64,000 bases of DNA from the IMG/VR virus record IMGVR_UViG_3300046000_006661, positions 1,821-65,820 of that record; one strand, 5' to 3'. The translations under genes were made by a program, and so were the position numbers. Positions 3,586-61,753 of this stretch are shown here, piece after piece; positions within the stretch are counted from its first letter, which is position 1; every line of letters begins with the position of its first letter. The DNA comes from a virus (lineage: Duplodnaviria; Caudoviricetes). The notes beneath the pieces were generated by a model that ran no database searches, was not told the origin of the DNA, and worked only from the letters and a program-made list of their open reading frames with translations.

Positions 3586-4060
3586 CGGAGCGGTTTTGCA
3601 TTTGAGCGTTTGAGCGAGCTTCGTAAAGTTTTTGCAAAATTACTTTGCAGAACTCACGAATTGCGTAAGCTTCTCCAGGTTCAATACCAATACCAAACTT
3701 CAAAGCTGAATTCTTAGTAATGGAAAATGAAAAAGCTTTAGTGCCATCATTTTTCTGATAAGGCTTAAACGAGATGCTAGTCTTATTTGTTTCGTGGCTA
3801 TGAAATGCTTTGTATTCAGAATAGTTTTCAATAGCGTTGATGATGCCGCCAACTTCAAATTCGTTTAGTTTGATTACTACTGTTTTTTCTGGGTTTTTTG
3901 CATTCTCAGCAAAGGAACCGTTTTTTGTTTTTTCATCCCATGAATGCTGCATAATAGCGTTGACATATAGGCAAGGGTCTTTGAATTTACCAGTAGTGCC
4001 AAGACGGAAAGCGAATGCGCATCCGCTCGATTTTGAATTGGGTTTATAGAGTTGAATCAT
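3578..4060 (-). CDS. Putative Whirly/PC4-fold ssDNA-binding protein
   Basis: Duplicated beta4-alpha pattern (VIKLNEFEVGGII; AFH; SISFKP..DG..FSFSITK; IGIEPGEAYAI) resembling plant Whirly proteins. Confidence 0.5.
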   Translation of the reverse strand: MIQLYKPNSKSSGCAFAFRLGTTGKFKDPCLYVNAIMQHSWDEKTKNGSFAENAKNPEKTVVIKLNEFEVGGIINAIENYSEYKAFHSHETNKTSISFKPYQKNDGTKAFSFSITKNSALKFGIGIEPGEAYAIREFCKVILQKLYEARSNAQMQNRSDD

Positions 4061-4099
4061 ACCTGATTTTAAATAGTGCGTAGAAATTTTCTACTAAAA

Positions 4100-4105
4100 G
4101 TGTAA
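4100..4105 (+). promoter_or_regulatory. GTGTAA motif (putative phage-sigma promoter)
   Basis: 8 nt before start 4114; one of nine copies found at gene starts. Confidence 0.6.
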
Positions 4106-4113
4106 GATATAAT

Positions 4114-4761
4114 GTGTCCTATCTAAATCATAATATTCCCACGATTACTTGCCTACTACGCAATGAATATCTTTTTAATCACGAAAAAGGACATGGTGAG
4201 TATACTTCATGCGATGTCCATTCTGTAACGTCAATTGAGAAGAGAGTTCCTCTATTTGAAGCGTTCTTGACGAATGGAGTAAACTGGACTCGCAGACCTA
4301 TTACAGCATTCTGTTGGAAGCCTTGCGATCCAGTGCCATTGGAACATGCAATGTATTGGGATTGTTTTAGTCCTTATGTTGATGTTCAGGTTCGCACACG
4401 AATGAAAGGTCTGAGAGCTTTACTCATCACGCCGCAAAATACCAAAGAAGCTGGAGAGTATATGTTCACGCTTGATTGGGGATGGGAGAATAAGAGTATC
4501 TTGGACACCAATTTTTCTGAAACACCAGAACATAAATGCGCTCATGTATTCAAAATGGACAATGGTAACTTTTATGCTTACCCAAACAATCGCATTGTGT
4601 GGCACGATAATGCGTGGGTTGATAAGCCTATTGACAAAAATCCTGGATATAAGATCGACTTGACAGTATATAGCGTCGAAAATAAACGCACACTGTTTAC
4701 TGATTATAGCTACATGACAGAATTCACCACTCAACCAAAAGAAGAAAATGTCACTCACTAA
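4114..4761 (+). CDS. Conserved phage hypothetical protein
   Basis: 215-aa ORF with GTG start. MSYLN.NIP...R.EYL and HKCAH...NGNF.A.PNNR motifs recall a widespread aquatic-phage family. GTGTAA lies upstream. Confidence 0.7.
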   Translation: MSYLNHNIPTITCLLRNEYLFNHEKGHGEYTSCDVHSVTSIEKRVPLFEAFLTNGVNWTRRPITAFCWKPCDPVPLEHAMYWDCFSPYVDVQVRTRMKGLRALLITPQNTKEAGEYMFTLDWGWENKSILDTNFSETPEHKCAHVFKMDNGNFYAYPNNRIVWHDNAWVDKPIDKNPGYKIDLTVYSVENKRTLFTDYSYMTEFTTQPKEENVTH

Positions 4762-19505: not shown

Positions 19506-20269
19506 GGTTGGTTCATTATTGTTTTAAGTTTTTGTTCGTATTGTTCCCAGCAAAATTCATCGCTGCCAAAGTGTTCTAAGTTGGGGCAAGAGAGTGTCGC
19601 TTGCTTGCCAAATTTGCGGTCACTGAGAATCTTGTATGTCTGAAAGGCATCGCAGTCAGATTTGTGCTTATAAAAAATAGATTGCACTAATTGAATTGAT
19701 GCATTTGGCATGGTATCTCGCGCATAACGATGCACAGCTTTCTTGATTAGTTCATCAAATGGAAGTCCATTAGACTCGATGAAAAATACTGGATTGAGCG
19801 GTGCGATATTTGGAATGCAATTGCCCATAATCATTTGATTATTAAAAATAAATGAGTCATAAAAAGGAACAGCTAACATCAGATCGTCGCTCCAGTGAGA
19901 GATCAGATCGTCATTAGAGATAGCACCTTTTTGACTTGTATTGATAAAAGAATACAATTGATTCAAAGCTTTGCAACCAGCGTCATTTTTTGCAAAGGCA
20001 ATAAGCTTATGATTAGACTTGGTATTGGCATCAGAGTTGCAGCATACGAATTTGTAGCCGAAGTGTAATTGAATGCCTAGCTCTTTAGAAATTCTAAAGG
20101 CTTCGAAGAATCCAGTCATTGATTCCTCAACCAAGAAAAGGTTCTTCAAACCGCTTTCTTTAGCGATTGAAAAGATGCTGTCAGAACCATCCGAAGTTTC
20201 TTTGTCGGGGTGCTGTAGCGTGAGAATCGACTTGCCTATCGAGAAGTGAGATGTAAATATAGGAATCAT
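19502..20269 (-). CDS. Stand-alone PHP domain of Pol III alpha
   Basis: SHFSIGKSIL, MTGFFEAF..SKELGIQLHFG and KLIAFAKNDAGCKALNQL match the DnaE PHP domain. Confidence 0.85.
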   Translation of the reverse strand: MIPIFTSHFSIGKSILTLQHPDKETSDGSDSIFSIAKESGLKNLFLVEESMTGFFEAFRISKELGIQLHFGYKFVCCNSDANTKSNHKLIAFAKNDAGCKALNQLYSFINTSQKGAISNDDLISHWSDDLMLAVPFYDSFIFNNQMIMGNCIPNIAPLNPVFFIESNGLPFDELIKKAVHRYARDTMPNASIQLVQSIFYKHKSDCDAFQTYKILSDRKFGKQATLSCPNLEHFGSDEFCWEQYEQKLKTIMNQP

Positions 20270-31556: not shown

Positions 31557-31562
31557 TTACAC
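31557..31562 (-). promoter_or_regulatory. GTGTAA motif
   Basis: 9 nt before ATG 31547, with an A-tract upstream. Confidence 0.6.
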
Positions 31563-31580
31563 TTTTTTTTAATAAAAAAA

Positions 31581-41315: not shown

Positions 41316-44300
41316 TTATCTTCTTAAAGAGCCTCCAATTCTTTTCTCGTCGTTGATGATCTGCAATACTGCGTCTTTGATTTGACGAGCGAGTTGTTGA
41401 CGGCTTGCAGATGGATCTTGCGAAGTTTCTTGAGAGGTTTGACCAGATGGAGCCACGTTGATTGTTATGTTTCCAGTTGAGCCAGATGCGCCAATAAGTT
41501 CATCAAGTTTTGCCAAGAGTTTTTCGTTGAGTTCCTTGCTTGTCTCTTCTGAAGTGATGGAAGTTCCACCAGAGTTCATTGATTGAAGGTTTGGCGCTCC
41601 AATGCTTTGAACAGCAGAGCGATTCATCACAAACTCTCCACCAGAAAGCATAGCTGGAACTGTGTCGATACCAGACCTAGATGGAATCATTCCACCAGTA
41701 GCGCTTCCTTTGGGTTTTCGCGGTAAGAGTATAAATTCTGGATTCTCTACTAGCGGAGTCATATTTGGATCAGATAATCCCTCTGGAAATAAATTGCCAC
41801 CACTCATACTTGTAGCTGCATCAAAAACAACTCCAGCAGGCGTTCTTGCTGTCCCTCTAGGTATGGAAGCATTTGCAGAAAATGGCATGGCTCCAGAAAC
41901 TGGCTCAGCCCTTAACGCGCCAATTCCGCCGCTTTTATCAATGTAAGAAGCAAAATTCTGATCTGATTGATAAAGATCCGATAATTGTTTGGCATTTCCG
42001 ATTTGAGACAGTTTGAATTTATTTACAGCACCCGCAAAATCTCCAGAAAACATCTTTCCAGCACCACTAAATAAATTTGATAAGCCTCCAACTTGTTGAT
42101 TTCCTACTTTCCCACCTTTAATTGCTCCAGAAAATGCAGTGCCAAATTTTTGAAAAAATCCAGCATCCTTTGGCAGATTGCCGAGAGCGGCTTTAGCTCC
42201 AGAGCTAGCAGCATTCCCAATACCTCCTAATGCAGCGCTTCCAACCAACATCAATAATTGAGATGTTAAAGCTTTTTTCTTTTCTTTCTCTTGTTTCTTG
42301 GCTTCTATTTCAGCATTATACTGTTGCAGATACAAATCAAAAGCTTGCTGTTTTGCTGATTGAGTGGCTTCGAACTGTGGCGAATTTCTCATTCCAGAAA
42401 CAGACAACATTGGACTTTCTGGCTCAAGAGCAATAGATTGGTAGCCATTTTCATTTGTCATTCTATCAAACACTCCCGATGTACCACTTTGAGTTGCAAA
42501 GCTTAATAAATCTCTTTTGCCTAAAATAGCTCCAGTATTATAAGTTCCTGGGGTATAGAAGCCAGCATTGCCGCCTTGTATTTTTTTGGCTTTTGATCGT
42601 CTTTCTTCATATATATTTTGTATTAATTTATTATATGGATTCTTTTCAGAATCGACCATGCCGCCATTAGCGTAACCATTCAATGTTCCGTTGTTGATTG
42701 CCTCTAAGAATTTTGGACCGTATTTCGATACAGCTTTCTTATTTACGACATATTCGCCGCCCATAAGCATTGCTGGAACATCGTCTTTTGATCCAGAACC
42801 ACCAGTTACTTTGCCGCCAGAAGCGAATCCAAGCATTCCAGATAAGAAATCAATAAATCCGCCACCACCAGCCGCTTCCTCTCCTTTTCCTTTAGGTTTT
42901 CCACTAACAATCCGATCAACTAATCTGCTAGTCATTCTTTGGTTTATAGTTTTTACCAACTCATAAGCGGCAGAACGGAATCCTTCTTTGAGAGAAACAG
43001 TTCCTTCAATTGCAGAGTTTATTGCACCGCTAATTCCATCAGAAAACATTTTTGGAATGTCTTTGCCTAATAGATAAGCAAATTGCTCGCCATCTATCTG
43101 CATTTGCAAAAATGCATTTTGCATTCCTTCTGCGAATGTTGAAGGAGATCCCTTTAAATCGTCTAGTTGCCGCTGCAATTGAGAATTTTCTGATTGTCCT
43201 ATGCTTTGAATTTCACCATTAATTTGCTTAATTGCATCTTCTCTTTCTCTAAGATCTTCTTTTGCTTTAGCAGCGTCTTCGCCACTTCTTATTGTATTTG
43301 CGGCTTGAGCTAATTTTTGTGCTAAACTTGCAGCGGCTTCATCTTGTAGTGTAAGTTCTTCTGTGGCATATTTTAATGCAGAATTATATATCTCCGCAGA
43401 GTCTGTCAATTTAGATAGTTCTTCGGCTTTTTTAAATTTTTCTTCTTCAGAAACTTTTGTAGTTAAAACTGTTGTAGTTGCTAATCCTGTATCTGTAGCT
43501 GGCCTGTAATCAGCTATTGATGATGTTCTACCAGTTGGATTGCCAAATTCTTTCATAAATGAAGGTTTGGCTCCACCAGCTTTACTCATCCGATCTGTAG
43601 CACTTCCAACTGGTCCCAATCTAAAGTTAGATGCCAAAGGATTATTAGGAATAACCTCTACCAGTTTTTTTAAAGCAATTGTGTTTTCTTTAATTTGTTC
43701 ATTATTGTCTCCTAATGCTAATATATTTTCTTCGAGCTTAGCATTTCTCACGAACTCGGCTTTAGCATCTAAGATATTTCTTTCGCGTTCGCTTTGTAAT
43801 TCATTTTGGAATTTAAGTCTTTCGAGTCTGTTTTCCTCATCTCTTCTTTCAAACGGAGAAATTCCATTAGTCTTAGATAATTGAGCAAGCTTTACGTCAA
43901 TGTCTGCATTTTTTAATTGCGATGCATATCCAACTTGTGTAGATTGATTCGATATGTCAGTTGCTCTTGCTGACATAAGTTGCGCGTATCTTTCAGACGC
44001 TTTATTGTTTTGTTCTTGGATTTTGTTTTTGGCAATTTCAAGATTTTTCGATTTTTCTTTTTCATCGTTTCCGTCTTGAACGGCTCGATTTGTTCTTTCT
44101 TGCAAATCAAGAGCGTTCAATATTGCTTTAGCTAATTGCTCAGCAGCATAAATATTTTCTTTTAAATCAGTTCCCTGTAATTGGGCTTTTGCAAAATCAA
44201 TCGCAGCTTGCTGTTGATTATTACTGCTTAATATCGCTTGCGCTTCTTTATTATCTTTAAGATTTTTTAAAGTTGCTCTTACTTTATCTTCTGCATTTGA

Positions 44301-47300
44301 GCCTTTAAACAGACCCTTGTCCATGAATTCTCCCGCCAATTTGTTTAGCTCTTCTTGGATTGTTTTTTGAGCTTCTAATTCGGCAGTTTGTTTTTCTAGC
44401 GCTGCTTGAGCTTCCAATGTTTTGATTGTTCTATTAGATGCTGAAAGATTTAAATCAGCTTCTATACCTGCTACAAGAAGTGAAGAATCATAACGCTTGT
44501 CTGCAATTTGCTGCTCTATCGTTCTAATAGACTCTCTTTCAAGCTTTTCTCGCTTGATAGCTTTAATTGTTTCTTGTAATTCTCTTGGTGATCTAGCTGT
44601 CGCGCTAATATTTTCTTCCGCAATTGCTTTTTCTTGATCTTTCGCAAGAGATGTAGTTTTATTTATATATTCATTTTGTATTTCTTCAGAAATGCCTTCT
44701 TTTTTTAAAGATTTAATTAAATTTAATAAAATTGTTGATTCTGGCGTTTGTCTACTTTGAGCATCTTTAAAAGAATTATACTCAAAAGAACCCTTTTTAA
44801 AATCTTTGCCTTCATACAAATACATAGTATCAGCTATTGACTTGGCTGATTGAATTTCTTCATAACTTGCGCTACCTAATACTTTTGCATTATCTTCGCC
44901 TATTTGATTTAGTAAATTTTGAGGGCTTAATGTCGATGGTATTTCAGACATCATTTTATTTAACTCATTGATATAATTTTTAACTTGACCGCCATTAAGC
45001 TGCACTTCGCCTAATTCATTTTTATCTCCCTGTTTAGCGTAATTAAGTAAAAGTTCATCAATTGTTTTTTGAGGAATTCCAACACCTCTTGCGTTTGCCA
45101 TAGATGTATATAATTCTTGGTTTAGTGTATCGCCAAGACCTTCTGTTAAATCACTATATCTTAATGAAGTCATGTCAATTTTTTGACCCATAGCTTTCGC
45201 TACTACTTGAAAGGCGGGAGCCATTAGTTTTTGTCCCGTGGTTTGTTCGCCATCGGATGTTAATTTTTGAGCCTTGCTTCCTATAGCCAAAACCGAAGCT
45301 CTAGCCTCTTCTTCAAATCTTTTCTTTATTGCTGGATTAATATTGTCTAAATTTACAGAAGCTTTACTAGCCGCTTCTGCTAATCTGCCAGTTGCTTCAG
45401 CAGCGCTCTTCATGCCTTGATTATTGCTATCTACATATTTTATAGCTTCCTTAAAAGCCACATACAAACCAACTCCTACTGCGGCAACACCACCCAATTT
45501 TCCAATGACTCTACCAAATCCTTTTTCTGCACCACCAAAAGCTTGCGATAATCCCTGACCAGCAAAAACTACTGTTGTTACTGAGCTAGCAACTGCACCG
45601 AAACTATTAAATAATTTCGCCATACCGCTTGTCGCGCCTTCTGTAGCTCCAGTTAAGGCGCTCATTGCTCCTTGAACTGCAAAAATAGTTCCAAGCATAT
45701 CTCTATTACCACCAGGAGTAGTGCTAGTGTCTCTTACTTTACCCATTGGGTTAGTAATAGATCTTTTTGCGCTTTGTGTGACTGCTGCTTGTAAATTTGC
45801 TGCGTTTTGATTAGCTTCTGCTTTTTTATTTGCTGTGTCTGTTGCAAGCGTTTTAGATTGGATTGCTATTTGCTTACGCTCTTCTAATGTTTGTCGAAGA
45901 GGTTGTTGTGCAGCGGCGACAGCTTTCTGCTGTTGAGCTTCTTGCATTTGCATATTAGTTATTGCCGCTTGCGCTTGTGGCGATTTCTTCCCCGCTGCTT
46001 GTGCTGCTGCAAGATTAGCCTGAATCTGTTTTAAAAGATCCTCTTCTTTTTTTAACATATCCCTTTCTATCTTGCTTCGTTTTTTTAAACTTTCAGAAGT
46101 TTGCTTTAAGCTTTTCTCTTGATTATCATATTCATCTTGAATTTGTTTCAAGTTATCAGTCAATCCTTGATTAATTTTAACTGTTGCTTCTGAAGGCTTC
46201 AAACCAACATAAGGAGATATATCTGCACCAGCTGCCCCAGCAGCAAAATTCGGCACAAACCCACCAGCAGCACCATACATCATTGGATTAGCTCCTTCTT
46301 TTCTTGCGCGGCTAATACCTTGGAATCCGCCAGCAGGTTCATCGCGACGATTGGCAACCATCAAACCCATAGGGTTTGCCGCATTCTTTAGCGCAGGACT
46401 CTTATCAATATAAATCTGTGAAGCAGGAACACCAGCAGCCATTTCGCGACCTACTGCCGCTTGAAGTGGATTGGCAAAGTTGGGAAGGAAGCCGCCAGCA
46501 GCTCCGCCTTCAATATTTCTGCGAGCTTGTTCTTTTATTTGTTTATGTGCGATTCTAGCTCTCTTAACCAATCCTTGAATCATTGGAGTTGGATCATTTA
46601 TATGACTTCCTGACCTTAATGGAATACCAGCATCTAAATCTATTAAATCTTTAAGAATTGATTGAAATGCTCCCATCTCTCTTGTAGAAACAGAAACGCC
46701 AATTCCTCTATTCATTAAGTCTTGAAATCCAGCTTTTGCCGCAGGTATAACCTGCTCTAAAGACTTTCCAACTAGGTCTTGTTCAATTGGAGAAATTCCG
46801 TTTGGCAATACAGCACCAAGAAACTGATCAAAACCAAGAGTTTTTGCAATACCAGTCAAAGGCTTCAGCTTTTCTAAAAGCCTTTTTGCATTTTCTGATG
46901 CACGATTAGGTGTTCCTCCAGCAAAATTAGGAATAAAACCACCAGCAGCCCTGGTGTTGAAAGGCACAACGCCTTTAAAAACCGCTGGCTTAGCTTTCGG
47001 GATAGAAGAAACCAATTCTCTCAAAATATAAGGTCCAATATTAAATCCTCTTTGCTCTGATTCCACGTAAGCGTTTTGGCTTTGTATTATTTTAGAAAAT
47101 TCAGAAGCAGAAGGTCTCAATTGTCCATCAAGGTATTTATATAAAATTTCTTTTTCTGCTGGATGTAAAGCTACGTCCCACGAATCTTTATAAGAAGCAT
47201 AAGCTTGTGGAAACTCATTCTTTCTCATTACTAATTTTTGTTTGCCAGTAAATCCTCCTAAAAGAGCGGTGTTGCCATAAAAGCCACCTTTATGGTCGGT

Positions 47301-50300
47301 CATTCTTGCTTTATCTTGTCCATGGTCATCAGCATAACCCCTTCTGCCAGCTAGTGCTGCTTCTGTAGCAACCTGCTTTCCATGTTCGCTTTTGGGATTT
47401 AATTTTAAAAATTCTCCCTTTTGGATATAAGCATCGCTTTTCTTCCCATCGTAATCCTTTAATGATTTTTGGCCTCCTAAAAGTTTGTATTTCAAGTATT
47501 CTTCCGAATCAGCATCTATGCTATGGCCTTCTCCACCTCCTGACTCGCGAGTCCCACTAATAACATTTTTGTTATTATAAAATGCTGTATTTATTCTTTG
47601 GGCTGCGAATTTAGCGAATTTTTCTCTTAATTTGTCATTTGTTAAAAAAGTTTTTATCGTATATTTTGCATTATCAAGATCTTTTCGTGTTTTAATGAGT
47701 CTTTCTGGTTCTTCGACAAATTTAGATACCATTGGCCAAACTTTATCTAAATCCAGTTTGCCTTTTAAAGCGGAAGAAATTACTCCTTGGGGTAATTGAG
47801 ATCCAAGATTTTTTGAAGAGGATATGGCAAATTTTGCAGCATTAAAAGCATCCATTACCCCGAAATTCGGCACAAACCCACCAGCAGCATTAGGAATATA
47901 ACCACGCGCAAAAGTATCTACTATAGAACTAATTCCAATGCTTAAACTACCGCCGCGCAAATCTTCGATAAATTCTTTGGGACCACTTTGCGTTTTGTTA
48001 TGTAGACCTTTAATTTCATTAATCAACAAAGAAAAAACATCTTTACCCGAAACCCTCTTAGCATTTATCTCCCTACCATTTTTTCCCCTATAACTAAAAG
48101 AGTCAATATTCGTATTTTTTACATTGCTGTTTTTTCTGTACCAAAGCTGCGGATACATCCCCTTTAAAATTTCTTCAAAGCCTACTCGTTGTCCTCCTTG
48201 TAAATTAGCCTCTAAATCATCTAATCTTGTTTTATCTTGAGCTAGAAGTATAGTAGAATACAACTTCATACCAGACCTTTTTGATAACGCCCCCAAGTGA
48301 TTAAACATTCTTAAACCATCGCCTTTTTGTAGAGACCTTATATAATCTATATTTATATAGTTTTTTAGTTTGCTTCCCGTTGATTTTGGATCGTATGATA
48401 ATGGATCGTATAAAGATGCATCCAGTTGTTTTAGTGAGTATGAAGCGTAGCTTCTGCTTTTTGGATCTGTTGCTGTTTTGGATTTTTTACCAGTAACATT
48501 TGATATTCGTTTGTTGAGACCAGGAATATATCCACTTAGAGCGTCAGGCGCTGTTGTTGGTTTTCTTCCATACGCAATGGATTGGTATTGAGGTGGAATT
48601 GCGGCTACATAATTCGGCACAAACCCATCAGCAGCACCATACGTCATCGGATCAGCTCCTTCTTTTATTGCTCTGTTGATTCCTTGAAATCCACCCGCTG
48701 GTTCGTCACGACGATTTGCTACCATTAAACCCATTGGGTTTGCCGCATTTTTTAATGTGGGGCTTTTGTCAACATAAATCTGCGAAGCTGGAATACCAGC
48801 AGACATTTCTCTATTCACTGCATCTTGCAATGGATTAGCGAAATTAGGAATAAAACCACCAAAAGCATTTTTTGCTTGTACTGCTTTTTGCGCTTCTGAA
48901 AGATTAAATGCGCCCTTTGCTTTTAAAATTTTAAGCGCTCTAGCGCTGTATTCAGGATCATTGAATACTTTTTTAATTATTCCTTGAACTTGACCAGAAC
49001 TTTCAAAATTAGCTTCTCCACCTCTTTTTGCCTCTCCTCTTTCAGCAGTTATTCCAAATATTTTACTAATACCTTCTGCATTCGAAAAATCAAATGGCCT
49101 ATTCTGTTCTTTACCAGAAAAAATTCCAGTAGATTTTAAATTTCCAGTCTTTAAATCTACTGCATCCCTTAAAGAATTAACCGCTACTTTACCAGCAGCT
49201 TCAAATAAATCTCCCTGTGCAGCAGTTGGTAATAATTGTTGTCCTGGTGTTTTTGCTATTTTTCTTATTGTTCCAACCCAATCTTCATTTTGAGCAAAAA
49301 GTTTACCATATAATTTATAAGCAAGATCGACAATTCCTTGTGCAAATGTATCACTTATATCTTCCTCTACCCCTTCAATGTCTCTACCAGATGGAGTATT
49401 TGTTTTTTGAATTCCAGAAAGTTGAATGTATTTATTTTTGTCTATTGGGGGTGCATCTTTATAGTTAAAGAACGGAATATCAGCAATCTTCATTGTTGTA
49501 TTTAAAAGACCCTTTTTCTTGCCAAATCGTGGAGAAATGAGAGCAATTCCACCAAGATTCTGGGCATTTAATTCATACGAACCCTTGTCTGCTATTTTTG
49601 CTTGTTTAATATCCGCATTAACAGCCGATACAGCTCTGCTAGACTTCATTACCCTTTCAACTTGAGATGGTGCTGCCTGAGTTCCATCAGGAAACCAATA
49701 ACTTCTGTATGGTCTACCAAATTCATCTTTCCCTGGTCTTATGTAATTTTCAATATTGCCAGCTTCAACATATTTTCTTATCTCGTCATCTATGGCTTTT
49801 GGTCGTGGCGCTTCAGCAAAGTTTGGAATAAAGCCTCCAGCACTATTATCAATTATAGAATTAATTTTTCTTTCAGAAGCTCTTTGAGAAGTTCTTTGTT
49901 CAAAATAAGAACTATTATTAAGTTTCGTATCATAGGGAACAACTAATCCTAATTTTCCTGATACGTTCTCGTCAAATGGATTTTTAATGTAGTTATTTGA
50001 AAGAAAAGAGTTTGCATATTTTTTAACAATTTCAAAAAGATTTTGTCTTTCCGTTGTTTTTACTTCATTATTGTCAGTTAAATCGAAAAATGAATTTTTA
50101 CCCAAAATTGGTTTACCGAGTAATTGAGATGCGTCTATCTCTCCAATAACTCCTTGAACTTTGTTTTGTAATTTTATCCATTTATCTTTATTTCCCTTTG
50201 TATCTCCTTTTGCATATTTTATATTTCTGATCGACGTTTCAATTGAAGAGACAGCTGATGGATCTGCACCTGCTTCTAACCATTCTTTTTTATATCGTTC

Positions 50301-52490
50301 CAAAGCATCTTCATTAATTTTCTTGCCAGAGCTAACTCCGAGTTTAGTGAAAATATAATCATCTTCTTTTCTTGTTTTTGACTGTCCTTTTCCAAGTACT
50401 AGCCCCGCTTCGTTTTGATAGGATTTAATTGCTTTTTTTTGTCTAAAGACGCTAATTATAGCTTTAAATTGATCAGATAGATCTGCATTTTCTCCATTTC
50501 TTAAAGCTCCTGATTTAGATTTTTTAAAAGAATCTACAGTCGTAAATGGAGTTTCAATGATTTCTGGCTTTATTGTATTTGCAAAATTTGGAACCAATCC
50601 TCCAGCTGCATTGATTTTCTTTGCTCCCGATGGCAACCCCATAGATTGAACCATACGTCTATTAAACACAGCAGTGCCACCACTTCCATTGAAATTCGGC
50701 ACAACATACTCGCCAGTATGTGCAACCATCGTCCCTTTTTTACCGCCTCCAAAATTAAAGTTTGGCATGACAACTGGTCTATCACCAGAACGAGCGCCAC
50801 CTACTCCTTGTTTGATTGCCTTGCTTTCTTTTGCAACTGCTGGCATATAACCGCCAGCGCTATTGCCAATGCGCAAACCAGAATCTTTAGCTCTACCTCC
50901 TACATTATAAAGAGGCGCTGCTAGTCCAGAGGAAATATTAGCGCTTCTTCTAAGAAGAGCTTCTTGCTCAACCAATGCTCCAGTAATTAATCTCAATTGA
51001 GCTGCTCTGTTGCCTTCTAATGCAAACAGTTGCTGTTGCAGATTGACGTTCTTGGATAATATTTGAGAAATTGCTCCCTCGACATTTTGAACTTCTTTAG
51101 CTGCCTTACCAACTCCAAAGAATGCCTTCAAGCTAGCAAATCCAAACTGTACTAAATCTTTTGAAAGTTTAAGAATAATGCCGCCAAATAAAGCCAATCC
51201 TGGACCAGCTAAAAAGCTTCCAAGACCTTTAACAAGTCCACGAACCAAATTTCCTAAACCGCTTTCTTCGCCTAAAACTTTTTGAATGCCTTCTAGCAGA
51301 CCATTGAAAAAGCCTAAAACATTTTTCAGGCTATCTGTTACGCCAATTTCACCAAGTTTCGCGCCAAGTTGCTCAGCACTTACAGCAACTTTATTTAATA
51401 ATGCGGCTAGCGTTTGATTAAGAACTGCATTTTTCTGATACGCCTTGCTTCCAGCTTCACCCATAGCCTTCAAAGCGCCAGTAGTAACGGATGCTTCATC
51501 AGAAAGGTCGTTTAATGCAGCTAGCAATTTATCCAATTGATATACACCGCCTAGTTTTTTGGCAATATCTGCTTGCTCAATTTGAGAAAAACTGCCCATT
51601 TTTTTAGCCAAGTTTTCTAATATTTTTAACGCTGGCAATACTTCTCCTTGAAGATCTGTAACTCCTACACGCATGTCTTGCAAATCGGACAAAACAGCTT
51701 TATCTTGTATTCTGCTAAAAATTGTTTTAAAAGCGTTACCGATAACAGCGCCACCTCTAGCGGTTTTTTCTTGAACTGCTGTAATAACAGCCGCTAATTC
51801 TTCAAACGAAACTCCAGCTAAATTAGCAACTGAGGCAGATCGCTTGAGACCCTCAATAATATCTCTTTCCGATACTGAATATTTTTGAGCAGCAGCAACA
51901 ACTTTATTGAGAATTTCTGCTGTGGTGATTCCAGAACTCTTGAATGAGTTAAATGCAGCAGTCAAACCTTCAACAGATTGTGCGGCATCTAGTCCAGAAA
52001 GCCGCGAAAGAATCAAAGCATCGTTTAATCTAGCAAGTGTATCTTCTGCGTTCAAACCTTGACGAGCCAATTCTAATGCACCTTTAGCAACTTCGTCAAA
52101 CGATTTGCCAGTATTTTTTGCCACGTTAAAAATATCTTGACCAAATTTGTCAAGTTCTGAGCCTGTCTTATTTAAGACGGTGCTAATTTCTACTAGACTT
52201 TTTTCTACTTTAATAGTGCTAGTCAAAAGTCCAGACATCGCCTTAGATACGCCAGCAATAATACCAGCTGAAGCTCCGAACGCCAAAACACGCGCATTTG
52301 CTGCTGCCATGGATTTTGAGAACTCATCTGCCTGACCAGTAATCCTACCCAATGGTTGGCTCAATGCGTTAATTTGCTTTGAGTTTGTTCCCAAGTTAAT
52401 CTGCGAAGAACTACCTACACGCTTCATTGCAGCGGCGATACTTTGCTCTAATCCGACTTGAGTAACTTGTAATTGAATAGACTGTGACAT
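41316..52490 (-). CDS. Tape measure protein with internal cargo modules (3724 aa)
   Basis: TP901-type core (ELARQG, TARGGAVIGNAFKTIFSRI), hydrophobic G/A segments, long coiled coils, FASGG/D.VPAML.GGE C-terminal motifs; AGGAG SD upstream. Confidence 0.92.
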   Translation of the reverse strand: MSQSIQLQVTQVGLEQSIAAAMKRVGSSSQINLGTNSKQINALSQPLGRITGQADEFSKSMAAANARVLAFGASAGIIAGVSKAMSGLLTSTIKVEKSLVEISTVLNKTGSELDKFGQDIFNVAKNTGKSFDEVAKGALELARQGLNAEDTLARLNDALILSRLSGLDAAQSVEGLTAAFNSFKSSGITTAEILNKVVAAAQKYSVSERDIIEGLKRSASVANLAGVSFEELAAVITAVQEKTARGGAVIGNAFKTIFSRIQDKAVLSDLQDMRVGVTDLQGEVLPALKILENLAKKMGSFSQIEQADIAKKLGGVYQLDKLLAALNDLSDEASVTTGALKAMGEAGSKAYQKNAVLNQTLAALLNKVAVSAEQLGAKLGEIGVTDSLKNVLGFFNGLLEGIQKVLGEESGLGNLVRGLVKGLGSFLAGPGLALFGGIILKLSKDLVQFGFASLKAFFGVGKAAKEVQNVEGAISQILSKNVNLQQQLFALEGNRAAQLRLITGALVEQEALLRRSANISSGLAAPLYNVGGRAKDSGLRIGNSAGGYMPAVAKESKAIKQGVGGARSGDRPVVMPNFNFGGGKKGTMVAHTGEYVVPNFNGSGGTAVFNRRMVQSMGLPSGAKKINAAGGLVPNFANTIKPEIIETPFTTVDSFKKSKSGALRNGENADLSDQFKAIISVFRQKKAIKSYQNEAGLVLGKGQSKTRKEDDYIFTKLGVSSGKKINEDALERYKKEWLEAGADPSAVSSIETSIRNIKYAKGDTKGNKDKWIKLQNKVQGVIGEIDASQLLGKPILGKNSFFDLTDNNEVKTTERQNLFEIVKKYANSFLSNNYIKNPFDENVSGKLGLVVPYDTKLNNSSYFEQRTSQRASERKINSIIDNSAGGFIPNFAEAPRPKAIDDEIRKYVEAGNIENYIRPGKDEFGRPYRSYWFPDGTQAAPSQVERVMKSSRAVSAVNADIKQAKIADKGSYELNAQNLGGIALISPRFGKKKGLLNTTMKIADIPFFNYKDAPPIDKNKYIQLSGIQKTNTPSGRDIEGVEEDISDTFAQGIVDLAYKLYGKLFAQNEDWVGTIRKIAKTPGQQLLPTAAQGDLFEAAGKVAVNSLRDAVDLKTGNLKSTGIFSGKEQNRPFDFSNAEGISKIFGITAERGEAKRGGEANFESSGQVQGIIKKVFNDPEYSARALKILKAKGAFNLSEAQKAVQAKNAFGGFIPNFANPLQDAVNREMSAGIPASQIYVDKSPTLKNAANPMGLMVANRRDEPAGGFQGINRAIKEGADPMTYGAADGFVPNYVAAIPPQYQSIAYGRKPTTAPDALSGYIPGLNKRISNVTGKKSKTATDPKSRSYASYSLKQLDASLYDPLSYDPKSTGSKLKNYINIDYIRSLQKGDGLRMFNHLGALSKRSGMKLYSTILLAQDKTRLDDLEANLQGGQRVGFEEILKGMYPQLWYRKNSNVKNTNIDSFSYRGKNGREINAKRVSGKDVFSLLINEIKGLHNKTQSGPKEFIEDLRGGSLSIGISSIVDTFARGYIPNAAGGFVPNFGVMDAFNAAKFAISSSKNLGSQLPQGVISSALKGKLDLDKVWPMVSKFVEEPERLIKTRKDLDNAKYTIKTFLTNDKLREKFAKFAAQRINTAFYNNKNVISGTRESGGGEGHSIDADSEEYLKYKLLGGQKSLKDYDGKKSDAYIQKGEFLKLNPKSEHGKQVATEAALAGRRGYADDHGQDKARMTDHKGGFYGNTALLGGFTGKQKLVMRKNEFPQAYASYKDSWDVALHPAEKEILYKYLDGQLRPSASEFSKIIQSQNAYVESEQRGFNIGPYILRELVSSIPKAKPAVFKGVVPFNTRAAGGFIPNFAGGTPNRASENAKRLLEKLKPLTGIAKTLGFDQFLGAVLPNGISPIEQDLVGKSLEQVIPAAKAGFQDLMNRGIGVSVSTREMGAFQSILKDLIDLDAGIPLRSGSHINDPTPMIQGLVKRARIAHKQIKEQARRNIEGGAAGGFLPNFANPLQAAVGREMAAGVPASQIYIDKSPALKNAANPMGLMVANRRDEPAGGFQGISRARKEGANPMMYGAAGGFVPNFAAGAAGADISPYVGLKPSEATVKINQGLTDNLKQIQDEYDNQEKSLKQTSESLKKRSKIERDMLKKEEDLLKQIQANLAAAQAAGKKSPQAQAAITNMQMQEAQQQKAVAAAQQPLRQTLEERKQIAIQSKTLATDTANKKAEANQNAANLQAAVTQSAKRSITNPMGKVRDTSTTPGGNRDMLGTIFAVQGAMSALTGATEGATSGMAKLFNSFGAVASSVTTVVFAGQGLSQAFGGAEKGFGRVIGKLGGVAAVGVGLYVAFKEAIKYVDSNNQGMKSAAEATGRLAEAASKASVNLDNINPAIKKRFEEEARASVLAIGSKAQKLTSDGEQTTGQKLMAPAFQVVAKAMGQKIDMTSLRYSDLTEGLGDTLNQELYTSMANARGVGIPQKTIDELLLNYAKQGDKNELGEVQLNGGQVKNYINELNKMMSEIPSTLSPQNLLNQIGEDNAKVLGSASYEEIQSAKSIADTMYLYEGKDFKKGSFEYNSFKDAQSRQTPESTILLNLIKSLKKEGISEEIQNEYINKTTSLAKDQEKAIAEENISATARSPRELQETIKAIKREKLERESIRTIEQQIADKRYDSSLLVAGIEADLNLSASNRTIKTLEAQAALEKQTAELEAQKTIQEELNKLAGEFMDKGLFKGSNAEDKVRATLKNLKDNKEAQAILSSNNQQQAAIDFAKAQLQGTDLKENIYAAEQLAKAILNALDLQERTNRAVQDGNDEKEKSKNLEIAKNKIQEQNNKASERYAQLMSARATDISNQSTQVGYASQLKNADIDVKLAQLSKTNGISPFERRDEENRLERLKFQNELQSERERNILDAKAEFVRNAKLEENILALGDNNEQIKENTIALKKLVEVIPNNPLASNFRLGPVGSATDRMSKAGGAKPSFMKEFGNPTGRTSSIADYRPATDTGLATTTVLTTKVSEEEKFKKAEELSKLTDSAEIYNSALKYATEELTLQDEAAASLAQKLAQAANTIRSGEDAAKAKEDLREREDAIKQINGEIQSIGQSENSQLQRQLDDLKGSPSTFAEGMQNAFLQMQIDGEQFAYLLGKDIPKMFSDGISGAINSAIEGTVSLKEGFRSAAYELVKTINQRMTSRLVDRIVSGKPKGKGEEAAGGGGFIDFLSGMLGFASGGKVTGGSGSKDDVPAMLMGGEYVVNKKAVSKYGPKFLEAINNGTLNGYANGGMVDSEKNPYNKLIQNIYEERRSKAKKIQGGNAGFYTPGTYNTGAILGKRDLLSFATQSGTSGVFDRMTNENGYQSIALEPESPMLSVSGMRNSPQFEATQSAKQQAFDLYLQQYNAEIEAKKQEKEKKKALTSQLLMLVGSAALGGIGNAASSGAKAALGNLPKDAGFFQKFGTAFSGAIKGGKVGNQQVGGLSNLFSGAGKMFSGDFAGAVNKFKLSQIGNAKQLSDLYQSDQNFASYIDKSGGIGALRAEPVSGAMPFSANASIPRGTARTPAGVVFDAATSMSGGNLFPEGLSDPNMTPLVENPEFILLPRKPKGSATGGMIPSRSGIDTVPAMLSGGEFVMNRSAVQSIGAPNLQSMNSGGTSITSEETSKELNEKLLAKLDELIGASGSTGNITINVAPSGQTSQETSQDPSASRQQLARQIKDAVLQIINDEKRIGGSLRR
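46242..50864 (-). repeat. About ten dispersed AxGG(F/Y/L)(I/V/L/M)PNF repeats and a duplicated ~75-aa module inside the tape measure gene
   Basis: Copies near 50850, 50595, 49830, 48850, 48620, 47900, 47875, 46935, 46485 and 46255. Identical 27-mer at 46246-46272 and 47863-47889. Confidence 0.9.
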
Positions 52491-54561: not shown

Positions 54562-54588
54562 TTTATCTATTTTATAATAGAAAAAAAA

Positions 54589-54594
54589 GTGTAA
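54589..54594 (+). promoter_or_regulatory. GTGTAA motif
   Basis: 8 nt before ATG 54603, with an A-tract upstream. Confidence 0.6.
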
Positions 54595-56568: not shown

Positions 56569-57684
56569 ATGGCAAGAAATCGAATCATTTATCAATCGGA
56601 AGGCGTATATATCAGCAAAGAAGCTACCTCTACTGGCAGCGGTGATCACGCCCAGCTTTCTCGCGTACAATCCGCGAACTACAATTTCAACATTGCTCGT
56701 CAGGATGTTAACCAATACGGTGAGTTGGCTCGTATCGACTCTATCGTTCTGGAATCTCCTACTGTGTCGATGGATATGAGCTACTACATCACTGATGGTC
56801 GAAATGAAGCCGCTCTTGGTTTCTATGTTCCCACTGGCACTCAAACTCAGTCTCAGTTCCCATCTGGTCACATTGTAGACGGAAGTGGAAGAAATCTTTA
56901 TATCGTAACCAGTAACGAAGGTACCGACCTTAACAACTTTGATGGCGCATCTAGCTTGAGTGGTAAAGGTTGCATCGGCGTTGGCAATGCTTATCTTACC
57001 GATTACTCAATTGAGTTGGCTGTTGGCAGCATTCCTACCGCAACTGTTAGCTTCGAAGGCTCCAACATGAATGCATTCACATTCAGCGGAACTAATTCAG
57101 GAACTTCTGTTGCGATCAATCAAGAATCTGGAACTGCACTTAATTCTGTTATTCGCTTGAAAGAACCCGATAGCTTTACTGGAGCTGCTGTGGTTACTGC
57201 TCTTCGTCCTGGTGACGTTACCATTAACTTTGGCACTTGGGGAACTGGCGGTTTGATTTCTAAACTCGGTGGCACTGATGGTGCGCACATTCAAAGCGCA
57301 AGCTTGTCTCTTCCTCTTGGTAGAACTCCAATTGAGCGACTTGGTTCTAAATTCGCTTTTGCGCGTGTTGTTGACTTCCCAGTTACCGCTACTCTTACTT
57401 TGAATGGCGTACAAAACGAAGTTGCTGGTGGCAACTTGGTTGATTTGGTCAATGCAAATCCCAAGCAAGACATCACAATTTCGGTCAAGAAGCCAGGAAC
57501 TAACACTAATGAGCTTGCTGTTGTATACGTTATCAAACGTGCGCAGCTTGATTCTGCTAGTGTTTCTAGCTCGATTGGTTCAAACAAAACTGCTGACTTT
57601 ACATTCACAACTCAAATCGGTGGTGCTAACGACACAGACAACGGTATTCAGATGAGCGGGAGCTTTACAACAGCCCCTTTTTAA
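56569..57684 (+). CDS. Major tail tube protein
   Basis: Two tandem tube-like domains (RVQSANYNFNIARQDVNQYG / IQSASLSLPLGRTPIERLG); synteny; followed by a terminator. Confidence 0.82.
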   Translation: MARNRIIYQSEGVYISKEATSTGSGDHAQLSRVQSANYNFNIARQDVNQYGELARIDSIVLESPTVSMDMSYYITDGRNEAALGFYVPTGTQTQSQFPSGHIVDGSGRNLYIVTSNEGTDLNNFDGASSLSGKGCIGVGNAYLTDYSIELAVGSIPTATVSFEGSNMNAFTFSGTNSGTSVAINQESGTALNSVIRLKEPDSFTGAAVVTALRPGDVTINFGTWGTGGLISKLGGTDGAHIQSASLSLPLGRTPIERLGSKFAFARVVDFPVTATLTLNGVQNEVAGGNLVDLVNANPKQDITISVKKPGTNTNELAVVYVIKRAQLDSASVSSSIGSNKTADFTFTTQIGGANDTDNGIQMSGSFTTAPF

Positions 57685-57752
57685 GTAGCCCTTCTGAACC
57701 TCCTGCTCCAACTTATATTAGTTCATTTGATATTGTTGGTGCGCTTTCATAA
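57675..57752 (+). other. Programmed -1 frameshift site and 23-aa C-terminal extension of the tail tube protein
   Basis: C CCT TTT TAA heptamer; the -1 frame reads (PF)LSSPSEPPAPTYISSFDIVGALS*. Confidence 0.85.
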
Positions 57753-57773
57753 AAATTAAAAAAAAAAAAAAAA

Positions 57774-57805
57774 GGGGGTTCTGAAAACAGAACCTCCTTT
57801 TTATT
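57774..57805 (+). terminator. Intrinsic terminator after the tail tube extension
   Basis: GGGGGTTCTG-AAAA-CAGAACCTCC followed by TTTTTATT; preceded by A16. Confidence 0.85.
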
Positions 57806-57844
57806 CAGAAGGGCTAAAAAAACAAAACAAAACAAAATAAAAAT

Positions 57845-58825
57845 ATGCCAAGATACATAGATTACGAAACATTTATAACTCCTAGTGGAGCCTTACCAGT
57901 TGCTCCAATTCAACCATACGAATATGCTTCCATTTACAATGGAATTAGCGATTTATTAATAAACGATGGAATAATTACATTTACTGGCTTGCCAACTGGT
58001 ATTGTTGTAGCTACACCAGAATCAAGCACAGCGCCATTTGATCAAGTTTTTGTTGATCTTGAGGATGCTGACGATTTCGTAACACTAAATTTAAATGGAA
58101 ACTACTGGAGCGGCAGTGCTATTGATAGTGGCGGCGAAGGCATAATATGTTCATATACTTCTGGAGGATTTTGGGCCATGGCACTTTATGATGGCGTAGA
58201 GCTGTATAGTATTATCCATACTGGAGATGGCGACCCTAATTCCTCTATATTGGATATTTCATTTAATCCGCTACAATCAGAATTACTAGAAAATCCTATT
58301 AATTTCGCTCCAGGACAAGAGGCTCCCATTAATTTAGTTCCAGGAGCTACTTATCAATTTGATGGTGACTCGTCCAGTATTACTGTTCCGATTCAATTTA
58401 ATCAAACTAGAAATGCTAGTTGGTATCTAGCACAAGTCAATAGATTCGGAGGCGTTTCTTATGGGCAATTAAATATTTCTGGAGTGGCATTTACAGGTGG
58501 CAGTTATCAAACTGTTACAATTCCATCGAAATCTGCTGGTGCTACACAGCTATATAATGTAAAATGGCTCAATGGTCAATTAACACTAACATCAGGAGCT
58601 GGACAAATGGCTCCAGACCCATTCGCAAATTTTAATTATGGAGTAGGAAATAATGTCTCCGCAATAATTCCAAACGAGATAATGAGCAGCTATAGCATTA
58701 TATCTAGTAATACTGGGAATAGTGGAACAGCTTCTATTCAAATCAATAATGCGCAACAATTTAGCGACCTGCCCTTGCCGCTTAGAAAGTTGCATGTTGT
58801 CTTTGACATTGCCGAGGATCTATAA
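57845..58825 (+). CDS. Putative tail-associated (decoration) protein
   Basis: 326-aa acidic, beta-rich ORF between two terminators, just after the tube gene. Confidence 0.55.
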   Translation: MPRYIDYETFITPSGALPVAPIQPYEYASIYNGISDLLINDGIITFTGLPTGIVVATPESSTAPFDQVFVDLEDADDFVTLNLNGNYWSGSAIDSGGEGIICSYTSGGFWAMALYDGVELYSIIHTGDGDPNSSILDISFNPLQSELLENPINFAPGQEAPINLVPGATYQFDGDSSSITVPIQFNQTRNASWYLAQVNRFGGVSYGQLNISGVAFTGGSYQTVTIPSKSAGATQLYNVKWLNGQLTLTSGAGQMAPDPFANFNYGVGNNVSAIIPNEIMSSYSIISSNTGNSGTASIQINNAQQFSDLPLPLRKLHVVFDIAEDL

Positions 58826-58831
58826 ACCACT

Positions 58832-58860
58832 AAAAAGGCGCTGTGAAAACAGCGCCTTTT
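58832..58860. terminator. Bidirectional terminator
   Basis: AAAAGGCGCTGT-GAAA-ACAGCGCCTTTT between convergent genes. Confidence 0.9.
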
Positions 58861-59369: not shown

Positions 59370-59375
59370 TTACAC
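59370..59375 (-). promoter_or_regulatory. GTGTAA motif
   Basis: 8 nt before ATG 59361. Confidence 0.6.
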
Positions 59376-59831
59376 TTAGTTATTGAGCAGCTTCAATAAT
59401 TCTTTATGCTTGGGATTGTTGTGGTCGATAACAAACGACTGCACAGCAGTAGGCATAATGTTGCGGCGACTATTGCGTGTGTAAGCAGTAAACTCTCTAA
59501 TAAGACTCTTCTTCAATACAGGCTTTTCGTGGTATGGATTTGTGCCAATCTTGAGAGCAAGTTTCTGCATATCAGAAAGAGACATTTCCGCGAGATTCTG
59601 TTCAAAGATTTCCAACTCATTTGTGCCGAATGGACTGATTTCACTCACGCCCAACATAACTTCCAACTTGCGCATTTTATCTGTAAATTCTGGAGTACCA
59701 ACTAAGCCAGATGCTTTCATTTCTTCAATTTCTTGAATTAGTGTTCTTTTTGGGGCGCTGGCAATTGATTCAGACACAGGCTCTTGAATCATTCCATTGG
59801 TTTCTTCTACTATTTTTTTCTTTCTAGCCAT
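59376..59831 (-). CDS. Hypothetical protein (Rho-N-like helical motif)
   Basis: LAEMSLSDMQKLALKIG...K..L.K.L motif; extended -10 TGTTACCAT 5 nt before the ATG. Confidence 0.6.
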   Translation of the reverse strand: MARKKKIVEETNGMIQEPVSESIASAPKRTLIQEIEEMKASGLVGTPEFTDKMRKLEVMLGVSEISPFGTNELEIFEQNLAEMSLSDMQKLALKIGTNPYHEKPVLKKSLIREFTAYTRNSRRNIMPTAVQSFVIDHNNPKHKELLKLLNN

Positions 59832-61117: not shown

Positions 61118-61753
61118 TTAGAGACCCAAGAAAACGATGGCATACGAGCCAGTCAAAGGATCTGAAAGATTTGCGGTTGAAACGGTAGCTGTGCGCGAGC
61201 CAGTAGCCAAAACCGTGCCGACTTTCTGGGTATCGCTGTTAGCGCAACCAGTAACTTTACCGCTAACGCCGCTAGGAAGTTTGAAACCAGAACCAATTGC
61301 TGGAACGGAGCCAGCGAAAGCAGAAGCAGCAAGGGTGAATACACCACGGCTAGCAACAGGAACCGCTTGACCAGGAAGCATACACATCAACTCTTCAGCT
61401 TTTTGTGGGTAGTAGAGAAGCTTCTCACCGTTTTCGTCAGTCTTTGCAGTTTGACGAAGAGTAATGCCAAGAAGAGCATCGCCCGAAGTCGCAGGTTTCA
61501 GCGAGAGGGAAACGCGAGGATATTGGTTAACTCCAACGTGTGGGTAATTGGTTTTGCCGAGATAGGAGTCGTAAGCGCTGTCATACACGATAGTATCGAG
61601 ATTGAGGTTGCCAGATTCCACGGTAACGAAAACGCCAGCATCGCCATTGTCGCTGCTAGTAACGGATTCATTAATGAATCCAGTACCCATAGCGAACATG
61701 TTGATAACATCAGTTTCGTTATACTGTCTGAATGGTAGTGTTCTAAGTGCCAT
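61118..61753 (-). CDS. Capsid decoration/cement protein
   Basis: LGITL...PGQAVPVASRGVF pattern; lies between the scaffold and major capsid genes. Confidence 0.65.
   Translation of the reverse strand: MALRTLPFRQYNETDVINMFAMGTGFINESVTSSDNGDAGVFVTVESGNLNLDTIVYDSAYDSYLGKTNYPHVGVNQYPRVSLSLKPATSGDALLGITLRQTAKTDENGEKLLYYPQKAEELMCMLPGQAVPVASRGVFTLAASAFAGSVPAIGSGFKLPSGVSGKVTGCANSDTQKVGTVLATGSRTATVSTANLSDPLTGSYAIVFLGL

Follow-up and report, generated by a model that had tools for sequence, protein, structure and literature searches.

What does a phage gain from ending a structural gene in a slippery heptamer, continuing it with an open -1 frame, and then enclosing a terminator-like hairpin in a stem whose first strand lies inside that open frame? 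The locus that raises this question belongs to an uncultured freshwater (lake-water) phage. It lies in a window of 64,000 bases, by which we mean the whole stretch of DNA analyzed here, taken from a linear virus record of 65,820 bases with a CheckV completeness of about 50%. At least half of the sampled words of the stretch 57300-58200 are present in 15 metagenome runs, from lake water or other sources. An initial annotation of the window had proposed that the frameshift, the terminator and the downstream gene are linked by an interlocked RNA switch, and we evaluate that proposal here by comparison with related loci.

Loci and alignments

Relatives were collected by scanning viral contigs with the gene upstream of the hairpin (gene A), which yielded 23 loci, and metagenome contigs with an alignment of this gene (A1), which yielded 533 relatives, the best 80 being taken. 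Ten loci carry the -1 frame extension described below (L001, L002, L004, L005 and L145-L150). L146 is identical to L002 across the stem region, and L148 ends 86 nt past the gene A stop, before the 3' arm of the stem. L148 was left out of the folds extending past the hairpin, whose 10 rows represent nine different sequences. The downstream gene (gene B), used as a query in the viral contigs, gave no match beyond one partial locus (L024). A scan of the viral contigs with a pattern of 14 specified bases returned at least 120 stretches, nearly all due to chance; the sole true match among the matches listed (L054) lies on the same contig as L005.

MAFFT alignments of the region (A2, A6) shifted the 3' arms of L005 and L149 against those of the other loci, and a covariance-model alignment was used for this reason. 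The first of these (A7) was discarded because it contained nine reverse-strand or partial matches. The alignment retained (A8) comprises nine sequences and was fitted to the structure, which biases it in the structure's favor.

Gene A encodes a predicted tail-tube protein

Gene A (56569-57684, + strand) encodes a protein of 371 aa. Its AF2 model (pLDDT 78.2, pTM 0.81) found its best Foldseek matches in the tail-tube chains of T5, DT57C and P74-26, with E values of 2.7e-13 to 7.6e-10 and TM scores of 0.50-0.63, and it contains two fused tube-fold domains, as T5 pb6-type proteins do. Judged by its modeled fold, the gene A product is a major tail-tube protein with a duplicated tube fold of the T5 pb6 / P74-26 type, and the earlier description of it as a tube subunit is confirmed at this level. 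By sequence it falls outside the T5 pb6-type family: gene A had no Pfam or PHROG family match in a search that included ten neighboring proteins, nothing below E 0.027 among PDB sequences, and no tblastn match in 50,697 phage records.

Several observations on the surrounding genes may be recorded here. In distant, mostly marine relatives, a second copy of gene A with the same conserved N-terminal motif lies directly downstream of the first (L174, L183, L194, L195, L196, L203, L219, L220 and L222). Tandem tube-protein paralogues thus stand where the tag and gene B module would be in those nine loci. A single ORF of 3,724 aa (41316-52490, - strand) adjoins the tail genes and could encode a giant tape measure or virion protein. 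The ORF at 61118-61750 (- strand) weakly matches cement-protein families of phages below the cut-off (E 0.01; 16.4 bits, where 27 are required), and the 380-aa ORF beside it may be a candidate for the major capsid protein.

A candidate shift site and a conserved tag in the -1 frame

The 3' end of gene A reads GCC CCT TTT TAA. The heptamer C_CCT_TTT (57675-57681, + strand) is thus in the 0 frame, has the X_XXY_YYZ form of a -1 frameshift cassette, and is followed directly by the stop codon (57682-57684). NNT_TTT is kept in all ten tag-bearing loci. The canonical C_CCT_TTT is found in the window and in six of the ten, the other four lacking a canonical X_XXY. The stop codon directly follows the TTT codon in the window and in seven of the ten loci, and comes one codon later in L147, L148 and L150. 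The T run at the shift site consists of five T only, and so short a run speaks against transcriptional slippage.

Slippage into the -1 frame would add a C-terminal tag of 23 codons, ending at a stop codon at 57750-57752 (extension 57681-57752, + strand). In the window this extension contains no in-frame ATG, GTG or TTG. Tags in the relatives are 19-27 residues long; eight residues are invariant in the alignment of 10 sequences (A5), where all indels are whole codons. It is the third codon position of the -1 frame that varies most (nine columns, against five and six for the first and second positions). What emerges is an open -1 frame under protein-coding selection without a start codon of its own, and from this pattern we read the region as a site of genuine -1 ribosomal frameshifting.

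An upstream stimulator of the Shine-Dalgarno (SD) type is unlikely in this host, since SD-like 4-mers precede only 2 of the 49 ORFs of at least 120 aa in the window. Leaders are A-rich, and the phage's host appears, from these sequences, to do without SD sequences. We take this to be the pattern of Bacteroidota hosts, a candidate host assignment only.

One marine locus deserves a separate remark. L176, whose gene A is 53% identical, lacks shift site, tag and gene B after the gene A stop (near 1609). The 13 letters past its stop are the same as those of the window from the stop into the 5' arm of the stem, and no complementary 3' arm lies downstream. This match may be left over from the module or may be coincidental.

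The outer stem is conserved and covaries

The outer stem is formed by a 5' arm at 57686-57698 (+ strand), inside the tag coding sequence, and a non-coding 3' arm at 57804-57816 (+ strand), 1 nt past the extended terminator-like hairpin. The arms are 13 nt long, 100% complementary and 105 nt apart. The 5' arm begins 4 nt past the heptamer in the window, the invariant core of the stem begins at 6 nt, and among the loci the stem lies 4-6 nt from the NNT_TTT site. The 3' arm shares just 3 nt with the U tract, at the end of the latter. The initial annotation had described a perfect 13-bp repeat starting 4 nt after the heptamer, with its 3' arm almost wholly beyond the U tract, and it was accurate on both points. 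The usual spacer between a shift site and its stimulator is 5-9 nt, with shorter ones noted, according to a review of frameshifting (PMC5009743), so that a stable 3' structure is found close to where a stimulator would be expected.

In the minimum free energy (MFE) fold of 57660-57850, the outer stem closes a three-way junction made up of an inner hairpin (57704-57743, + strand), which is different or absent in the folds of relatives, and the terminator-like hairpin. This fold has an energy of -55.4 kcal/mol (z -6.44), and none of 200 shuffled sequences was equally stable. The outer-stem duplex itself has energies of -15.9 to -22.0 kcal/mol. Rfam returned nothing at its gathering threshold, the best match, idnO, scoring 28.3 bits where 100 are required.

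Taken by itself, such a repeat could well arise by chance. The outer stem is the only perfect 13-nt inverted repeat in the 64-kb window when loops of 3-150 nt are allowed; 100 dinucleotide shuffles contained 0.47 such repeats on average (sd 0.87, maximum 4), which makes its mere presence weak evidence. A second repeat, of 11 nt (26869/26991), is A/T-rich and within chance expectation, and was set aside. It is the position beside the shift site, together with conservation by compensatory changes, that takes the outer stem beyond chance.

Independent MFE folds of all nine sequences reaching past the hairpin contain the same enclosing stem. When the arms are anchored on invariant motifs, all 7 distinct arm pairs retain pairing of an 11-bp core, three positions of which show changes on both sides. 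Compared to the window, L149 has G-C changed to C-G, U-A to C-G, and C-G to U-A; L005 has one of these changes in common and one C/U mismatch. As L005 and L149 are sister taxa, these changes represent few independent events among nine sequences only. L150 and L149 have an extra pair at the inner end of the stem. One of the changes in the 5' arm produces a synonymous Pro codon in the tag and is matched in the non-coding 3' arm. Pairing is kept by compensatory changes in loci down to 65-68% gene A identity.

The same picture was obtained for the whole two-helix structure in A8 where, with the bias of a structure-fitted alignment, 93.7% of cells are paired, against 87.5% in shuffled alignments, and 11 pairs are changed on both sides, against 3.6. 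None of 500 shuffles reached any of five measures, and moving the partner by 1-3 columns reduced pairing to 42-66%. For the outer helix in this alignment, eight pairs are invariant and 4 of 13 are changed on both sides, with pairing in 93.2% of cells. The covariation in homologous loci that the initial annotation had asked for is thus present, and from it the outer stem is very probably a selected RNA structure.

A terminator-like hairpin separates the two arms

Between the two arms lies a hairpin of 11 bp with a tetraloop (57773-57798, + strand; -17 kcal/mol), followed by a U tract with seven T in eight positions (57799-57806, + strand). A G+C-rich hairpin with a U tract is the makeup of an intrinsic terminator. 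The hairpin is preceded by a run of 16 A (57758-57773, + strand) that can pair with the U tract, and these A-U pairs extend the hairpin to -21.6 kcal/mol. In the extended helix, 7 of 15 pairs are changed on both sides among the relatives (in the structure-fitted A8), and at least four consecutive T follow the hairpin in 9/9 loci. The A run itself is a length-variable, non-coding homopolymer, and no relative has one as long as the 16 A of the window.

A consensus terminator scan listed the hairpin on the - strand only and not on the + strand; our guess is that on the + strand the tail is consumed when the stem extends by its A/T pairs. The same scan identified a distal bidirectional terminator (58833-58860), common to the convergent genes, whose -16.4 kcal/mol is similar to the hairpin's -17. 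Relatives without the module have an equivalent terminator directly 3' of gene A. We infer that the hairpin would terminate part of transcription. Metatranscriptome contigs from four runs include stretches of gene A, reaching as far as 57704 and 57736, and nothing of gene B; being assembled contigs in which 57745-57848 was skipped as a repeat, they are uninformative on 3' ends or read-through.

The arrangement has a direct consequence for folding. In full-length RNA, the predicted pair probability of the stem core is 0.81-1.00. If the RNA stops at the U tract, so that just two bases of the 3' arm are included, the pairing probability of the 5'-arm bases is 0.22-0.47, spread over assorted partners. 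Geometry and predicted pairing therefore both support the earlier claim that formation of the stem requires RNA reaching beyond the hairpin and its U tract.

Tag, stem, hairpin and gene B form a mobile module

Gene B (57845-58825, + strand), preceded by an A-rich leader without an SD sequence (57817-57844, + strand), encodes a predicted all-beta protein of 326 aa (AF2 pLDDT 73.8) that is present only with the tag. Its model gave no Foldseek match at E<=0.001, and its sequence gave no Pfam or PHROG match. The N-terminal ~140 aa and the C-terminal ~50 aa are conserved and flank a hypervariable middle, which is deleted in the gene B of L149 (at 3747-4400 of that locus). As far as sequence goes, this layout is the pattern of an exchangeable binding module.

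The tag had been said to be tied to the downstream gene, and the survey agrees. Among the 102 loci in which the gene A stop could be placed (their metagenome part being the best 80 of 533), the tag motif occurs in 10, always in the -1 frame; gene B occurs in nine loci, all of them tag-bearing, and in none of the 92 tag-less ones. The tenth tag locus is the truncated L148, so that co-occurrence is complete in the nine testable loci. Relatives without gene B also have no shift site, tag, stem or hairpin, examples being L003 and L008, whose gene A is 88% identical. On the gene A tree, the presence of the module requires four changes, at least three of them forced by the starred branches, and 2/500 label shuffles gave a number as low. 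Tree and co-occurrence together indicate that tag, stem, hairpin and gene B travel as one unit that has been gained or lost at least three times.

The joint travel of the module would fit docking of the gene B product on the tag. A complex prediction of gene B with the 30-residue -1 frame peptide, run without controls, gave scores of 0.00, 0.74 and 0.00.

An unrelated sequence motif was seen in the same analysis. The 8-mer AAGTGTAA lies 9-16 nt upstream of four gene starts, at 4098-4105 (+), 31557-31564 (-), 54587-54594 (+) and 59370-59377 (-). A fifth copy, at 20061, is inside a gene, and none is found at gene B. The motif is not enriched in number (five against 2.76 expected); what is striking is where its copies lie, and it may be a promoter element of the phage or a motif for initiation.

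A proposed split stimulator that depends on read-through

The absence of shift site, tag, stem and hairpin where gene B is absent, together with the spacing of 4-6 nt, leads us to read the outer stem as a frameshift stimulator. The model we favor is as follows. A fraction of ribosomes would slip into the -1 frame at NNT_TTT before the gene A stop and add the conserved tag of ~23 residues to the tube subunit. The 12-13 bp G+C-rich stem, 4-6 nt past the shift site, would act as the 3' stimulator, being the helix that closes a three-way junction around the terminator-like hairpin. Transcripts ending at the U tract would lack the 3' arm, and the stem would form only in RNA continuing into gene B. 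The amounts of tagged tube subunit and of gene B product would then both follow the level of read-through, and the tag would recruit the gene B product to the tube.

For this explanation as a whole, a tube gene -1 frameshift with a read-through-dependent split stimulator, we estimate a probability of roughly 0.55. Its parts differ in strength. Stimulation of slippage by the outer stem is somewhat more probable than not. Gating of recoding by termination, such that only read-through mRNAs make tagged subunits while also encoding the partner of the tag, would be a form of ratio control and is a tentative suggestion that we consider rather less likely than its opposite. If true, the ratio of tag to partner would be fixed whatever the strength of the terminator. 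Several considerations weigh against this explanation. The 4-nt spacer is at the short end, and the first ribosome, if close behind the polymerase, would reach the shift site before the 3' arm exists. The four loci with a non-canonical shift site, the three with a displaced stop and the silence of the terminator scan on the + strand also count against it.

Alternative explanations

The interlocked switch of the initial annotation goes further, and in its full form would have three states. An antiterminator strand, the terminator and the outer stem would exclude one another, and the position of the ribosome, at the stop at 57682 or through to 57752, would set read-through. The proposed antiterminator strand (57696-57704, + strand) is indeed an exact 9-nt copy of the hairpin 3' arm (57790-57798), as had been noted, and can pair with 57773-57781. 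When the RNA is cut before the hairpin 3' arm, the MFE fold joins the hairpin 5' arm to the outer 5'-arm region in 9/9 loci. In addition, the energy of the antiterminator duplex is better than that of most shuffles in the close clade (0.023-0.080 as good) and of all shuffles in L147 (0/300), the locus in which the upstream copy and both hairpin arms are altered together.

However, that is the single double change in the antiterminator, and on A8, an alignment fitted to the two-helix structure, 228/500 shuffles were as good as the 91% of antiterminator cells paired. The two most divergent loci, L005 and L149, have these columns unpaired, and their best alternative duplexes are no better than shuffles (0.30 and 0.26 as good, respectively). 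A conserved, mutually exclusive alternative helix, as in an attenuator, is therefore not supported at this locus. The antiterminator helix would also have to form at about -15 kcal/mol over a loop of ~70 nt, in competition with a local hairpin of -17 to -21.6 kcal/mol. Moreover, Pro codons (CCN) in the tag beside a G-rich hairpin arm can yield such pairing without selection. We thus consider the antiterminator doubtful, and a switch with three states equally so. What stands of the original proposal is a conserved outer stem, its position at the shift site, a predicted fold that depends on read-through, the tube identity of gene A and the strict co-occurrence of tag and gene B; the covariation of its antiterminator does not rise above shuffle level.

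The outer stem could instead be an mRNA processing or stability element. Since the 3' arms of the hairpin and of the outer stem abut in 9/9 loci, with 1-2 nt between the 3' strands, the two would stack into a quasi-continuous helix of ~28 bp, in which both helices covary. Such a helix could be an RNase III-type site or give protection between the messages of genes A and B. This explanation is unlikely, as it leaves unaccounted for both the placement of the 5' arm within tag codons, 4-6 nt past the shift site, and the joint loss of stem, tag and shift site with gene B.

Another possibility is that the stem serves translation of gene B. At its base, the gene A stop meets a position 28 nt upstream of where gene B starts, and by closing the 130-nt loop the stem could bring ribosomes terminating at 57682-57684 to the gene B leader, in a host that appears not to use SD sequences. 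In a variant of this idea, frameshifted ribosomes would open the stem and thereby regulate gene B, for which frameshift-driven unfolding in ermC, described in PMC5009743, offers a precedent. However, the 3' arm ends 28 nt before the ATG, which leaves the initiation region uncovered, and the distance from arm to ATG differs among loci. We regard both versions, taken jointly, as quite improbable.

Finally, a repeat that arose by chance or is a DNA-level relic of the recombination that inserted the module, with no RNA function, would suit the chance expectation of such repeats per window and the mobility of the module as a unit, but it is strongly disfavored by compensatory changes that hold the pairing together in loci as divergent as those described above and by the extent of the repeat, which brackets the tag end and the hairpin alone and leaves the inserted gene outside.

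Comparison with known systems

The cassette is, by its sequence features, best described as a -1 frameshift cassette, in which the stem straddling the terminator appears to be what is new. To our knowledge, the stimulators of frameshifting in bacteria and phages are, with few exceptions, hairpins or pseudoknots formed locally. A literature search, to which subscription papers were mostly inaccessible, found no account of a stimulator stem enclosing an intrinsic terminator. A covarying stem in this position would make recoding depend on a transcriptional decision. The module also points to a new kind of tail-tube decoration, in which a short peptide, predicted to be added by frameshifting, always travels with one variable all-beta protein.

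The locus resembles attenuators such as those of trp and pheA in having, upstream, a duplicate of the terminator 3' arm that could act as a competitor for the 5' arm, and differs in that the possible competition here comes without covariation support and with no sensor identified. In barley yellow dwarf virus, according to PMC5009743, the stimulator at the shift site needs distal 3' pairing, so that recoding depends on downstream sequence as proposed here. That virus, however, is a eukaryotic RNA virus in which the pairing is on a kb scale and linked to replication, whereas the distance here is 105 nt and the link would be to termination.

Extension of a subset of major subunits by recoding has counterparts in the Listeria phages A118, A500 and PSA and in the Ig-like extensions of tail and capsid proteins, as described in a review. 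Compared to the Ig-like extensions, the extension here is a peptide of 19-27 aa and always occurs with one specific downstream gene. The frameshift stimulator of IS911 is a three-way junction according to PMC5009743, and the IS911/IS3-family shares with this locus a -1 shift and a branched 3' stimulator whose basal helix begins a few nt past the heptamer. What sets the locus apart from that family is a branch consisting of a terminator-like hairpin and U tract, a shift site beside the stop codon, and the lack of an SD-like 5' stimulator.

The nearest known counterpart is gene 10 of phage T7. In our own reading, the T7 record (NC_001604, 23800-24400; positions 187-221 and 371-384 of that segment, our L227) has a G run 16 nt past the shift site of this gene, and the CCCC of the Tphi 5' arm is complementary to it. 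Frameshifting in gene 10 of T7 was reportedly first described by Condron and colleagues in 1991. As in the window, a phage structural gene (10A/10B) undergoes a -1 shift a few codons before its stop and gains a C-terminal extension, and a far-3' sequence at a transcription terminator (Tphi) is involved: in the 2016 review PMC5009743, this is a CCCC located in the terminator, over 200 nt downstream of where the shift occurs, and the role of the distal element is given as still unexplained. The T7 shift site, G_GUU_UUC, resembles the G_GTT_TTT of L150. The two systems differ in that the T7 gene encodes a capsid protein and that of our phage a predicted tail-tube protein. In T7 the element is inside the terminator, whereas here the pairing partner lies just beyond it, and here the stem covaries and is 4-6 nt from the shift site. 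If our explanation is correct, pairing of sequence near the shift site with sequence at a terminator may also explain the terminator dependence of T7 gene 10, and the cassette described here, with its ~145 nt, would be a compact and mutable model for that long-range effect.
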